This document shows positions 1,204-50,026 of a DNA stretch of 64,000 bases, in pieces. The position numbers and the translations under genes are program-made. The stretch covers positions 280,302,001-280,366,000 of the forward strand of contig OZ024742.1 of NCBI GenBank assembly GCA_964016885.1. Direction: 5' to 3'. The DNA is from Eledone cirrhosa (lineage: Eukaryota). Each line of letters opens with the position of its first letter. Within the stretch, counting starts at the first letter, position 1. The notes beneath the pieces were generated by a model, which did no database searches, was not told where the DNA came from, and saw nothing but the letters and a program-made list of their open reading frames with translations.

Positions 1204-1334
1204 TAGGAACCAGTAAGACCCCGACAGCTGAGCTCAAGCCGTTTCGACGGCTAATTCTGGAGTTCAGAATTCTGAGTCCAGAATTAGCCGTCGAAACGGC
1301 TTGAGCTCAGCTGTCGGGGTCTTACTGGTTCCTA
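1204..1334. repeat. Near-perfect ~130 bp palindrome at the 5' end of the PLE (inverted pLTR junction)
   Basis: aggaaccagtaagaccccgacagctgagctcaagccgtttcgacggctaattctgga is followed after a short spacer by its exact reverse complement, then (TA)n. Confidence 0.9.
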
Positions 1335-2384
1335 TATATATATATATATATATATATATATATATATATATATATATATATAGAGAGAGAGAGAGAGAGA
1401 GAGAGAGAGAGAGAGATGTACAGTACATAGTATAATTGAAGTTCATAATATAAAAAAAATACGTAATATATTAAAAAATAAGATAAAAATGAATTATATT
1501 ACGATTTGGAAATATATTCTTACAATTATAAGCAATATAACTTTAAAGCAATATAATTAAAAAAAAATATAATTTTAAAAAATTACAGAATATCTTAAGA
1601 TATAATTTTAAAATAAGAATATGTATAAAAAATTCAGTATAACATTTAAATTGTTTATAGAATATTTAACTCTCAGTATGTTTAACTTAATTTTATAACT
1701 ATAGATTTTTAATAATATATAGATCTCAACTTTTAATGTATAGATCTCAACTTTTAATGTATACATCTCAATAACATGATGGATAATTTAATTGAAAAAC
1801 TAATCTTTTAATCATATTTAAACCCTGCATAAAATTCATTTTCTATTCACGAGTATTTTCCATTCACGCTTAATTACTTATTTACTTTACTCATCCAAAA
1901 TTATTTATTTTTTCACTTCATCTTAAAAGTTATGCTAATACAACCTATCACTTAGGGCTTTCTCTTTCTCTTTCGCTTTCTCTTTTCTCTTTTCTTTTTT
2001 TCTTCTCTTTCTCTCTTTCTCTTTTTCTCGTTTTCTTATTTTCCTCTTAAAGCTGCCTTTTTCTTTTTTTTTCTTTGTTTCTTTTTTTCGTTTTTCTTTT
2101 TTTCTTTCTTTTTTTTCTTCTTTTTTTTCTTCTTTTTTTTTTCTTTTTTTTTTTCTTTTTTCTTTTTTCTTTTTTCTTTTTTCTTTTTTCTTTTTTTTCT
2201 TTTTTCTCTTTCCTTCTCTCCATACCCCAACGGCTTATTATAAATCTACTGTGATTTTAAAATATCCGACACTAATTTGCATAATAGTATAAATAAATGT
2301 ATAACCCCACTATCCGGGAGCTTCCAACAGAAATGGTCGCATTCTTTAAGGGTATGTCAATATTTATTTATAAAACTGATCTAT

Positions 2385-2458
2385 ATTATATGTTATCTGA
2401 TGAAAGCACACCATAATTTAACTTGGTGTCCTTGAAGTATGTATAATGAAATAAATAT
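2385..2458 (+). ncRNA. Type I hammerhead ribozyme-like motif, family A, diverged copy (GAAG instead of GAAA)
   Basis: tatgttat-CTGATGA-AAGcACACCA..TGGTGTcCTT-GAAG-TATGTA-TA-atgaaata. Confidence 0.6.
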
Positions 2459-2706
2459 GGTTTTATAAATATAGTCTCCATATGTTAATATCTCGTATAT
2501 ATATATATGTATGTATATATATATATATATATATATATATATATATATATATATATATATATATATATATATATATATATGCAAAAGTTCTATTTAAAAT
2601 TGTTGGGATACAACAAGTAAATATTTTTATAACTGATATAAAGCACTCGACAAGTATTTGGAGTAGATATACGATATTAATAAATGGAAACTATATTTAT
2701 AAAACC

Positions 2707-2782
2707 ATATTTATTTCATTATACATATTTCAGGGATACCAAATTAAATTATGGTATGCCTTCATCAGAAAAAATACAATAT
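2707..2782 (-). ncRNA. Type I hammerhead ribozyme-like motif, family A
   Basis: Reverse complement reads tatttttt-CTGATGA-AGGcATACCA..TGGTATcCCT-GAAA-TATGTA-TA-atgaaata. Confidence 0.7.
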
Positions 2783-3631
2783 ATAACAGTTTTACAAATA
2801 AGCTTTGACGTACCCTTTTAAAGTGCGACCATTATTTTTGGAAGCCATCTGGATAGTGAATTGTTTATATTATTTTAATAAGTCTTAGTGTTAAGGACAA
2901 TTAGAAAAAGACGGAGAGAAAGAAAAAAGACGGAGAGAGAGAAAAAAGAAAAAGAAAAAACGTGGAGAAATATCGGAGAGAGAGAAATGCATGGAGAAAA
3001 AAGGAAGAGATAAATAAAGACAGGAGGAAAGAAAGAAAAAAGAAAAAAGGAAGGAACAAGAAAAACAGAGGAAAGCAACAGAGAGATATCAAATCAACAG
3101 ACAGATAGAAAGACTCAAGAGAGAGAAATAATATATAGAGAAAGGGGGAGATAATGAAAACTTATTAAGTTGAGTTAACAATTTATATGAAATGAATAAT
3201 AAAAATATAAATATTAATATTCATGAATGGGACATAAATATATAATATGAGAAATTAAACATTGTTTAATAATGATTATATGTTTAGTTTAAAAATTGAG
3301 ATCAATATACTAAAATTTGAGTTTAAGCATCCAAAATGTACACATTGCTAGAGAAACCACTATCTTACGGCAAAGATACACAAATATATATATATAGATA
3401 TATATATATATATACGCACATCCTGAAAATAGAAATTATATCTACTCAAGCCTACAATATAGACATACAAAACAAATGATTTCTCTCTATCACTGCTATA
3501 CATTCCTTGGGTTATAAAAAATTCACAGAATATATACATAAATATATACGATTAACATTCATGCCTTCATATATACGATTACCATTCATGCATTTAACAT
3601 TCTGTTAAAATTATGCAAATCTGCAATCAAA

Positions 3632-3942
3632 ACTACAGAATTTAAATTTCGCTTCAATAATCATAAAAATTATTTCACAGATCCATACAAAAAATCTTCA
3701 ACTTCGCTATCTAGCCTACTATGGGACCTAAACGAGATAATGTTAAATATTCGATGACTTGGAATATTATTTCAGATGCTACTCCTTTTAATTCCTCTTC
3801 AGAAAATTGTGATCTTTGTATTGAAGAAATATTCTTTATATTAAAGTCCAAAATTTCCCTTAATTTAAGGAATAATTTATTCAGTTGCTACAGACATAGA
3901 TTGAACTCAACGTTTAAATATAAATATAAATTTAAAATGTAG
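3632..3942 (+). pseudogene. PLE GIY-YIG endonuclease C-terminal remnant (frameshifted)
   Basis: TTEFKFRFNNHK..SSTSLSSLLWDL, then YSMTWNII..CDLCIEEIFFI..LNLRNNLFSCYRH; resembles the FK.R..NH...W.I....C.LC..E...LN.R tail of PLE ORFs. Confidence 0.75.
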
Positions 3943-47590: not shown

Positions 47591-47993
47591 TATATATATA
47601 TATATATATATATATATATACATTATAAAGAAACGATACTGTCGAAGAGGACATATACACAGTCGGTCATTTTCCCACTCACTCAATAATTTAGTTTAAT
47701 CAACGTATCAAGACACCAACCCAAGTTTTAGACGTTAAATAGTGAGCAAAAGGATTTCGTATCGGTAGAAAACTTGATTTTCCGGCTCCGTATCAATGAA
47801 TTAGTTTCTGCAACTGCCACTGCTAGCGGAGTCTAAAAGGACGTACCATACACAGAAGCTAGGTAAAGCTATGAAGCATTACGTAAATGGCTATAACTTG
47901 CTTTATCAATGGGAAATTAGTGCCACTGGAACATTTCAGCTATCAATCCACTGCTCCGATGTATTTCCCCCATTAGTTTAACTCATGCAGAAA

Positions 47994-48182
47994 AATAACT
48001 TTTTCTACCTTTGGCACAAGGCCAGAAAATACCCAGTGCATAACTGGTACTTTATTTTATCGACCCCGTAAGGATGAAACGCAAAGTTAACCTCGGCGGG
48101 ATTTGAACTCAGAATGGCAAGGGCCGTAACTCTATGAGTCAAAGCATGGTTTCCGACTCTCTACCGATACTGCCAATCACCA
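47994..48182 (-). mobile_element. SINE family 1
   Basis: Reverse complement of consensus. Confidence 0.88.
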
Positions 48183-48534
48183 TATTTACCTGTTAGTAAA
48201 CGGAATTTGTGTGTGCGTACGTGCGTTGTTGTATATGTGTGTGGGTGCGTGCGTGCGTGTGTCTGTGTGTGTGCATGAATATGTATGGATATGCGTATGT
48301 GCATGGGTATATTGAATATCTGTGCGTGCACATGCATATGTGTGTATTATATGCCAATGTGCGAGAGTATATGTATGTGAGCATGCAAATGCACGTAAGC
48401 TTACATGTGTACATGCATGCACGTACATGCGTATATGTATACATGTTTTTATACACTATACCCTCGCTTACGCGTGCTTCTATATTGACCAACACATACT
48501 TATGTACGAGCCTTGTTCCTAAATCAGAAATCAT

Positions 48535-48727
48535 TGGTGGATTGGCAGTATCGGTAGAGGATCAGACGCCATGTTTTCCAGCATTGAGTTAATGTCCCTT
48601 GCCATTCTGAGTTCAAATCGCGCCGGGGTTAACTTTGCCTTTCATCCTTATGGGGTCCATATAATAAAGCACCAGTAATACACTGGGATAATTGCTGGCC
48701 TTGTGCCAAAAGTAGAAAAAATTATTA
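48535..48727 (+). mobile_element. SINE family 1
   Basis: Consensus match. Confidence 0.88.
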
Positions 48728-49728
48728 TTACATTTACTAACAATGAATACATTCAGTTTTGTTTATTTAATCATTTAACTTTTATTCACATCATTTTCCA
48801 TATATGGAAGCTGGAGATCTTTCAGCTATTCTAAAAAGCTTTTAATCTCCTGATTTTTTCATTGTAAAATGTGTTTTTTTTCATAGCAATAAATTGTTCT
48901 TCTCGCTCCACATATTGACGGAATTATTTACAGTTTGATTTTTCTCAGGTTCAGAAGATCCCGTATATGGTTATGGTGAAAGCATGTATTCTTTGCTTAA
49001 ACTCTACAAGTAGTGAACTAATAAATAATATATATATATATATATATATATATATATATATATTGGTAACACTGGAAGATAATATCCGTAGTGGTAGAGC
49101 ACTCAGTCGATGGGACGAGTTAGGTAGAAGTGGTTACACAACAGTTAGTTCACCATACCGAGAACAATTCTTTCACCTTAGCACATCCTCAGCTGGTAAT
49201 GGACATCGTTATACGGAACAGGAAGGACAACCGTACGAACGCGCATGCGCAGAAACGATCCCTTCACAGAGGCAATACTGAATTGCATACGAGAGGTGTA
49301 CGGGAGATAACTGCGAAAGTCCGAAAAATGTCTAGTTTATAAGAAAATTAGGATTGTGTTGTAATTCAATCCGGAGCTTTGTAGTTATGTAACAGGTGTT
49401 TCCAGACGTGTGGGCAACGTGTGTCGAATTCATTTCTCGTGTTTAGGCAATCACTATTGCGTAATCTCTTTACAATAGTTATTCGTTCATCAATACATAG
49501 TCCACACGACGGCTTGCCCCATGCGTATGGCTTGGACTTAGTGATGGATTTCCATTGAATGGAGTAGTCTATACTTGAGTCCTTGAGGGACCATACGAGG
49601 CTAGCGAGTTTCGTGGATTCTTCCTTATATATATATATAAATATATATATATATATATATATATATATATATATATATATATATATATATATATATATAT
49701 ATATATATATATATATATATATATATAT

Positions 49729-50026
49729 ACGTGGAAAAGTAAGAAATCGGAGAACAGACCGTTAAAACATGTTTATTTAAAACAGCACCTACGTACGTTT
49801 CGCCCAGTTGGGTTTGTCAAGGGCATAAATAACCAAACGTGTTCCTTACATTGCCTGGAAAGTGTTTTGGGGGTTAAGGTCACGTCATAATTCATTCCGA
49901 GCAATATAAGGAACACTTTTGGTTATTTATGCACTTGACAAGCCCAACTGGGCGAAAAGTACGTAGGTTCTGTTTTAAATAAACATGTTTTAACGGTCTG
50001 TTTTCCGATTTCTTACTTTTCCACGT
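49729..50026. repeat. ~130 bp-arm inverted repeat carrying a variant minimal hammerhead-like motif (family E) in each arm
   Basis: 49729-49860 is the reverse complement of 49895-50026; TTGACAA-GCCC-aact-GGGC-GAAA-(C/A)GTACG-TA at 49935-49965 (+) and about 49790-49820 (-). Confidence 0.7.

Follow-up and report, generated by a model that had tools for sequence, protein, structure and literature searches.

The genome of Eledone cirrhosa very probably contains six families of PLE with predicted self-cleaving type I hammerheads in their terminal repeats, whose copies end at fixed sites adjacent to (TA)n. This reading takes families A, E and F as Hydra-type and D as Neptune-like, B as likely an old PLE end and C as likely a unit moved by PLEs. 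The class itself is already known: published PLEs, an Octopus Hydra element among them, cover hammerheads, insertion at (TA)n and the variant pairs U3-A8, U·U and C·A. What is new is that copy ends of family C pile up just past the predicted cut and that family F has tens of thousands of what are likely half-ribozyme stubs.

Hammerhead motifs in the window and the genome

The window (the whole stretch of 64,000 nucleotides that was analysed) was read directly, and all nine full and both half hammerhead-like motifs reported by the first-pass annotation were present. They belong to seven insertions of six families, with core starts as follows:

1124..1332, both strands: palindromic stub of family F. 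The minus arm, with an 80-nt tail (~1261 to 1124), lies head-to-head with the plus arm (1275-1332). Of the hammerhead, both arms retain the 3' half alone (GAAA at 1293 in the plus arm, mirrored in the minus arm; cut predicted after 1315). The stub is flanked by (TA)n at either end.
2072..2503, plus strand: 3' end of an older PLE of family A, with hammerhead core 2397, G in position 15.1 and the cut predicted after 2445; (TA)n comes next.
2575..6208, both strands: young insertion of family A (Hydra-type). The inverted 5' arm carries a tail and hammerhead core 2768-; GIY-YIG C-terminal remnant from ~3633 and A+T-rich 3' UTR; the plus end has core 6104+, with the cut predicted after 6152, and runs into (TA)n.
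6390..6548, plus strand: family B PLE-type 3' end, core 6403, 83-nt stem II, U·U closing pair, predicted cut after 6504, (TG)n next.
44084..45159, both strands: family C insertion (522-nt non-coding unit). 623-nt minus arm with core 44334-; 3' half motif with GAAA at 44707+; plus arm with core 45029+ and the cut predicted after 45098. The insertion has (TA)n at either end.
45964..47590, plus strand: Neptune-like PLE of family D, broken and truncated at its 5' end. It retains an RT thumb, the CX2-5CxxC linker and GIY-YIG; core 47352, predicted cut after 47386, 60-nt tail, (TA)n.
49692..50136, both strands: family E (Hydra-type) inverted pair of 3' ends. U3-A8 cores 49820- and 49935+; the minus arm runs into (TA)n, the plus arm into a tail.

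The motifs outnumber the insertions because the inverted arms of a single insertion had been entered twice. The same annotation had described a local cluster of about five unrelated families. We found six, and they are not unrelated: the A and F proteins are 41-42% identical. The six families together gave ~120 matches per Mb in loci fetched for other families, a figure that is perhaps too high since the sampled loci flank PLE insertions, against seven insertions in the 64-kb window. The density of the window is thus about that found elsewhere in the 3.0-Gb genome, and there is no special cluster.

A structure descriptor recovered six of the nine full motifs in the window. It missed the D copy, which has an extra base 5' of stem II, and both E copies, in which stem I is bulged. 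The descriptor gave a mean of 0.63 matches (range 0-4) in 30 local dinucleotide shuffles and none in the reversed window. With a stricter descriptor, 134 distinct matches in 19 clusters were obtained from 1.35 Mb of fetched loci, compared with 0 in the reversed sequence. The Rfam check gave no hammerhead among the matches listed for the whole window (150 of 292), nor any hammerhead match in three targeted stretches. This absence and the shuffles that reach four matches are what could be said for chance matches in A+T-rich, repeat-rich DNA. We consider that explanation hardly credible, because all motifs are members of multi-copy families in which the core is conserved, the stems pair and the position is that expected in a PLE, and because of the 134 matches against 0 in reversed sequence and the stem covariation described below.

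The core is CTGANGA in 86/90 copies of A, 51/53 of C and 39/50 of D, and TTGANAA in 62/66 of E and 18/28 of F. Position 7 varies in E (TTGAGAA in 37/66, TTGACAA in 25/66), and positions 3 and 8 are constantly U-A. The exceptions are CCGATGA in 21/32 B copies, with C at position 4, and CTGAGAA in 9/28 full F copies, with C3·A8; these are subfamilies with damaged cores that have multiplied. With these exceptions, the families have the type I core (positions 3-9 with the 3-8 pair, GAA, the 15.1-16.1 pair and H17). Some window copies deviate from their family type. G at 15.1 (GAAG, 2434) occurs in 1/90 A copies, the D copy has U3 where the family form is CTGAAGA (32/50 copies), and the two E copies have one change each, at 10.1 or 15.2.

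Covariation was present in stem II of family A, with double changes at four pairs among 31 copies (8/500 shuffles), although mostly as one subfamily split involving two pairs. In the A alignment 96.9% of cells were paired, compared with 35-55% when it was slid. Relatives of C showed both one-sided and two-sided stem changes. For A, B, C and E, homoduplexes of stem III were calculated at -2.2 to -9.8 kcal/mol and the monomer hairpins at +1.5 to +4.7 kcal/mol, and the F monomer at -7.1 kcal/mol. Cleavage as dimers, mentioned in the first-pass annotation as the view held of such elements, is therefore compatible with A, B, C and E and unnecessary for F, in which stem III is stable in the monomer.

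Element ends and encoded proteins

Copies of all six families stop at a fixed 3' site, beyond which comes either (TA)n or a fixed tail. (TA)n was found after 198/251 non-tail ends, compared with a background of 6-9%, in agreement with the (TA)n preference proposed earlier. All six have the features of PLEs, namely a pLTR with a fixed end, an optional tail, inverted 5' copies and (TA)n targets. PLE ORFs sit upstream of the A, D, E and F hammerhead ends, and C is a non-coding tandem, which bears out the assignment of the type I hammerhead motifs to terminal repeats of PLEs and to retrozyme-like repeats. The suggestion that such mobile RNAs would escape ORF-based annotation holds only for C and for truncated stubs.

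Family A showed a pLTR-ORF-pLTR arrangement with a spacing of 4,320 bp (locus L341). The A, E and F proteins contain a CxCX5C linker and, at the C-terminus, a GIY-YIG lacking CCHH, with CxxC/CxH motifs (L343, L352, L335, L338, L349). The DKT motif is present in A and E, and the corresponding part of the ORF is missing from the F loci. RWK was absent from the A, E and F loci, whose N-termini are broken or missing; it is present in another element at L337. Family D has a CX2-5CxxC linker and a cysteine pair inside EN (L354, L173 and window 46750-47150). In Pfam the Hydra-type ORFs were unmatched and only the D RT fragment matched, below cut-off, so that the clade calls are based on motifs and not on a tree. 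By these motifs A, E and F are assigned to coding PLEs with Hydra-clade signatures, and D is assigned to a Neptune-like PLE, as fits the Neptune/Nematis type. Naiad membership was rejected because EN is C-terminal, and Nematis was rejected for A, E and F because their linker is CxCX5C. Family B is loosely linked to an ORF (2/6 loci) and is likely an old PLE end.

These features suggest how the copies may arise. The GIY-YIG nuclease would nick (TA)n, and RT would start downstream of the ribozyme at one of two fixed internal positions, either the element end or the tail end. Two cDNAs primed on opposite strands and joined at their far ends would give the inverted arms that lie head-to-head. Trimming of tandem or read-through transcripts is the likely task of the ribozyme, in the dimer form in A, B, C and E, and its cleavage would not be required for a copy to insert.

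Copy ends in families F and C

There were 35,626 exact 25-mer matches of F in the genome. Most F copies begin within the loop of stem II; the CUGA core is missing from them, and they are often palindromic stubs. In three samples, 38/73, 22/30 and 33/53 copies had their 5' boundary at -47 to -35 from the cut, compared with only ~3/73 at the cut itself. Most F templates likely start at a transcription start within this loop, and RT run-off from such a start would give short palindromic stubs with the 3' ribozyme half only. A cap-derived extra G before the start, seen in 1/8 listed junctions joined to foreign sequence, was unsupported. A splice acceptor behind the boundary was rejected for want of a common upstream exon. 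A full F with a 14-bp stem II built from the stub hairpin was also rejected, the search giving one unrelated match. The search for full F anchored on CTGANGA gave 15 mixed matches because the usual F core is U3-A8. Chimeras with the F 3' half behind the 5' half of another family occur at L199, L201 and L202; they were picked by the search pattern, and no enrichment is claimed.

Family C, of which there are 249 exact copies, has a head-to-tail period of 522 nt, a longest frame of 76 aa, and dimers as well as one trimer (L418). Each unit of this non-coding tandem carries one type I hammerhead, as in a retrozyme. The analysis turned up no coding parent for C, and an ORF in L031-L033 was rejected as part of it, not being contiguous with C. 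The copies have two 3' ends (22/50 at +56/+61, 24/50 at +176 to +184), variable 5' ends and inverted arms, and are spread over many chromosomes. Its tandem period, the trimer and the presence of copies within a 12.4-kb segmental array might suggest a satellite amplified locally from a PLE end rather than a retroposed unit, and local amplification of retrozymes is discussed in the accessible part of Li et al. 2026 (bioRxiv 10.64898/2026.07.22.740005). This origin is very improbable and is largely excluded by the signatures of PLE insertion: the copies are dispersed on many chromosomes, their two fixed 3' ends lead into (TA)n, their 5' ends vary, and inverted arms occur.

The 5' junctions of C were concentrated at +5 to +20 past the predicted cut (13/74, ~1.5 expected, Poisson 6e-9), and five further junctions lay at the equivalent place one unit upstream (p ~0.02). 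None was at 0 to +4 and only one at +21 to +37, and 60/74 copies run through a cut site. This peak is a possible trace of cleavage in vivo. Some C templates likely end at the predicted cut, and the majority would be uncleaved multimers or religated circles. In E no peak followed the cut (30 copies), and the 5' junction maps of A and D (unselected loci) were uninformative because alignments were ended by subfamily divergence.

We therefore put forward only tentatively, and at rather less than even confidence, that an F promoter fires inside the ribozyme and so disarms the 5' copy, and that the ribozyme of C cuts the retrozyme RNA, which a Hydra-type PLE protein then inserts in trans; mobilisation of the C unit by a PLE protein is itself likely. 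The same families could be true PLEs whose hammerheads leave the transposition template uncut in vivo, as folded passengers or protein-binding structures, with the C and F peaks due to RT stalls at hairpins. Since no C junction is at 0 to +4, the peak, which lies at the 3' base of stem I, could reflect such a stall, and the F boundaries at -45 to -37 overlap the 3' arm of a small loop II hairpin. The reading-through of cut sites in C and the spread of subfamilies with damaged cores also suit this alternative, as do results with an anole PLE, for which Frangieh et al. 2024 (PMC11167929) describe ribozyme mutants that still insert, cleavage being dispensable in vitro, and no RNA ends at the cut. 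We nevertheless regard it as unlikely. The F hairpin is weak and A+U-rich, and RT meets the far stronger stem III and stem II arm earlier. The near-empty stretch at +21 to +37 in C and the repetition of the peak one period upstream also argue against stalling, and core, U3-A8 pairing and palindromic stem III are retained across at least 19 clusters.

Comparison with known elements

The first-pass annotation implied that ribozyme-bearing (TA)n elements are novel. Craig et al. 2021 (PMC8557442) had already published Hydra-clade PLEs with canonical hammerheads and (TA)n insertion, and list Hydra-1_Obim from Octopus bimaculoides. The elements described here share with the Hydra-clade C-terminal EN+ PLEs of that study the DKT motif, the CxCX5C linker, the GIY-YIG without CCHH and the (TA)n targets, as well as a 3' hammerhead with palindromic stem III. 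In its File S2 the U·U closing pair is common and C·A occurs in PLE-X1_cBra. However, none of the six motifs is identical to the listed Hydra-1_oBim motif, and the elements are longer (4.3 kb in A versus <3 kb; tails of 80-165 nt versus 30-40). Also unlike that clade, the stem II of B, C and F measures 49-83 nt, stem III of F is 19-nt and stable, and the E and F cores are U3-A8. A literature search for such stubs or for cephalopod ribozymes returned only Craig et al. 2021 and reviews.

Like the minimal PLE hammerheads of Cervera and De la Pena 2014 (PMC4209133), the present ones are type I and lie in pLTRs, mostly in truncated solo copies; opposite-strand pairs 100-700 bp apart, the U3-A8 variant, palindromic stem III and the extra base before stem II in D are also shared. 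In contrast to them, B and C lack the conserved G10.1-C11.1 pair and most B copies have C at position 4. In its CX2-5CxxC linker and the cysteine pair in EN, family D is like Neptune/Nematis-type PLEs. C is like metazoan non-LTR retrozymes (Cervera and De la Pena 2020, PMC7229834; Li et al. 2026 bioRxiv) in being a low-GC non-coding tandem with one type I hammerhead per unit. It differs in unit length (522 nt versus ~170-400 nt, mostly 1-2 units), and in its two-start PLE ends, (TA)n targets and inverted arms. In Poseidon PAc (Frangieh et al. 2024), RT likewise starts at two internal places (end and tail) and the targets are A+T-rich, as in all families here. No RNA ends were observed at the cut in PAc, whereas C has its junction peak just past the predicted cut, and a transcription start inside the ribozyme, as proposed for F, was not found in the portion available of that study.

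Craig et al. 2021 called the role of PLE hammerheads unclear, and these families are useful because that role is still debated (Craig et al. 2021; Frangieh et al. 2024). Since they are young and abundant and their 5' junctions can be mapped, they make it possible to ask if the template end is set by cleavage or by the start of transcription. With their likeness to small inverted-repeat elements, the F stubs could be mistaken for MITEs, and their transcription, if it occurs, would yield long double-stranded RNA. The insertion signatures of C are evidence for a retrozyme-like unit moved by PLE machinery. If the proposal for F and C is true, the insertion record shows PLE hammerhead action in vivo, with tens of thousands of F stubs written into (TA)n, and C would be direct evidence for the transport of retrozymes by PLE machinery and for template ends set by cleavage.

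Hammerhead motifs in the window and the genome

The window (G000:C3:280302001-280366000; genome 3.0 Gb) is A+T-rich with many microsatellites, features that suggest a cephalopod host, and 5.7% of its positions have (TA)-rich sequence next. Every hammerhead-like motif claimed by the first-pass annotation (nine full and two half) was found by reading the sequence, and its interpretation of them as parts of hammerhead-bearing Penelope-like elements (PLEs) targeting (TA)n is correct. The eleven motifs are not separate units, however: because the inverted arms of a single insertion hold the motif twice, they represent seven insertions, from six families (A to F) rather than about five. 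A type I hammerhead descriptor recovered 6/9 full motifs; 30 locally shuffled versions of the window averaged 0.63 hits. The 3/9 missed were the D motif, with one more base ahead of stem II, and two E motifs, in which the core is U3-A8 and stem I is bulged. The Rfam models recognised none of the motifs; no hammerhead was among the best 150 of the 292 window matches listed, nor in three targeted stretches.

Cores were kept across copies, with position 7 variable. In family A (31 copies), 96.9% of stem cells were paired, and covariation appeared as four stem II pairs in which both bases had changed, chiefly along a single subfamily split. In A, B, C and E, stem III is self-complementary and does not make a stable hairpin, a pattern that Cervera and De la Pena (2014, PMC4209133) link to dimer cleavage; stem III of F is stable as a monomer. 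C at position 4 in 21/32 B cores and a C3·A8 mismatch in 9/28 full F copies speak against activity being strictly required. Several of the copies in the window have damage not shared with their family.

The window does not hold a special cluster, since loci fetched for other families match A-F about as densely. With a stricter descriptor, 1.35 Mb of fetched loci gave 134 distinct motifs in 19 clusters (reversed sequence, 0); the genome therefore holds many more hammerhead families. At least seven others are multi-copy (loci L218, L334, L337, L344, L345, L399, L081), and there are ten singletons; several have U3-A8 cores or long stems.

Element families and their targets

For each family, genome searches gave between 498 and 2,242 candidates at first look. 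The best copies were 99-100% identical in C, 96-99% in A, 92-96% in E and 85-93% in B and D. Exact matches in the whole genome numbered 249 for a C end motif, 217 for one of E and 35,626 for a 25-mer from F. The 3' end is fixed in all six families, followed by (TA)n or a fixed 60-165-nt tail. The proposed (TA)n preference was borne out by enrichment in every family (12/21 to 87/97) versus 8.9% in flanks.

(TA)n after tail-less copies of each family
Family A: 24/28
Family B: 12/21
Family C: 25/32
Family D: 22/34
Family E: 28/39
Family F: 87/97

Family A has a terminal repeat-ORF-terminal repeat structure in L341 and inverted arms in L342 and L343. ORFs lie upstream of E and F ends (L352, L350, L335, L338, L349) and of the D end (L354 and the window). 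In the A, E and F proteins the linker is CxCX5C, the GIY-YIG is C-terminal and lacks CCHH, and CxxC/CxH motifs are present; A and E also have DKT. Craig et al. (2021, PMC8557442) give all of these as Hydra-clade features. The supplement of that paper lists Hydra-1_Obim of Octopus bimaculoides, which has a hammerhead and targets (TA)n, and shows closing pairs of the U·U and C·A types resembling those of B and C. The D protein has a CX2-5CxxC linker. ORF matches upstream of B were weak (2/6 loci).

Family C is a 522-nt head-to-tail unit whose longest frame is 76 aa. An ORF near C in L031-L033 was rejected as its own, not being contiguous with C. These loci (G000:C1:349.32-349.39 Mb) form a 12.4-kb-period tandem array in which C units and Hydra ORF remnants are co-amplified with interleukin-17-like genes (Pfam IL17, E 9e-8). 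By eye, the A tail (window 2640-2665, -) and the C unit (+180 to +205) have a ~20-nt motif in common, possibly a site bound by one protein in both, which would tie C to an A-like driver.

Other elements in the window
1-1069 (-): N-terminal RT part of another PLE (also L353:5923-7071), with a 383-aa open frame that continues past the window edge; it is separated from the F stub by 10 TA units and is distinct from F's Hydra-type ORF
14291-19693 (+): near-complete L1/Tx1-like LINE; a 643-aa ORF1 is followed by AP endonuclease, RT and zf-RVT, which two stops interrupt
55592-57007 (-): LINE 3' portion with zf-RVT and, by appearance, a restriction-like endonuclease; taken to be Dong/R4-like
41219-41597, about 48000-48180, 48530-48720: SINE-like copies, one a 190-nt tandem pair

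Junctions of families C and F

For C, 70 loci taken in genome order yielded 74 distinct 5' junctions. Thirteen of the 74 lie +5 to +20 past the predicted cut, where the 44 junctions located between -494 and -11 predict ~1.5, and 5 more lie at the equivalent place one unit upstream; positions 0 to +4 hold none, and +21 to +37 hold one. The peak could come from cleaved templates that were trimmed during joining, or from an RT stall at stem I. No comparable peak was present in E (30 copies). At least one predicted cut site was read through in 60/74 junctions (two in 11/74), and most C templates were therefore uncleaved multimers or religated circles. The 3' ends of C fall at two sites, a signature that Frangieh (2024, PMC11167929) ties to two internal RT starts in the anole PLE. 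A deleted C derivative occurs in tandem with a 215-nt period at L399 (G000:C2:141479609-141480061).

The F palindrome at window 1124-1332 is typical of its family. Among 73 F copies chosen by their tail end, the start falls between -45 and -35 relative to the predicted cut in 38, and the ribozyme is complete in 10. Starts at this boundary made up 22/30 and 33/53 in two more samples, in which the two arms of a stub were counted separately and the anchors leave out the shortest copies. The stubs are independent events, because their junction fillers vary between copies. The two arms of a stub usually stop at different RT starts, evidence against simple fold-back.

Within the stem II loop, the F boundary coincides with TCATT / T(C/T)AGT, an initiator-like sequence. 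Transcription would start inside the predicted ribozyme; an internal promoter is reported for Drosophila Penelope by Schostak (2008). The rival reading is that RT stalls on a small hairpin in that loop; no cap-derived G was seen at F junctions. At L199, L201 and L202 the F 3' half directly follows the 5' half of hammerheads from other families, joined in one case through shared microhomology. These chimeras, for which the search pattern selected, may be template jumps between PLE RNAs.

The system is of a known kind, as (TA)n-targeting PLEs with hammerheads are already on record in an octopus. Families A-F appear undescribed in the papers searched; one on O. vulgaris repeats, in which the word 'ribozyme' is absent, gives the number of recently active Penelope-like families as 31. 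The addition made here is the record of junctions for F and C, through which the in vivo role of these ribozymes becomes testable.
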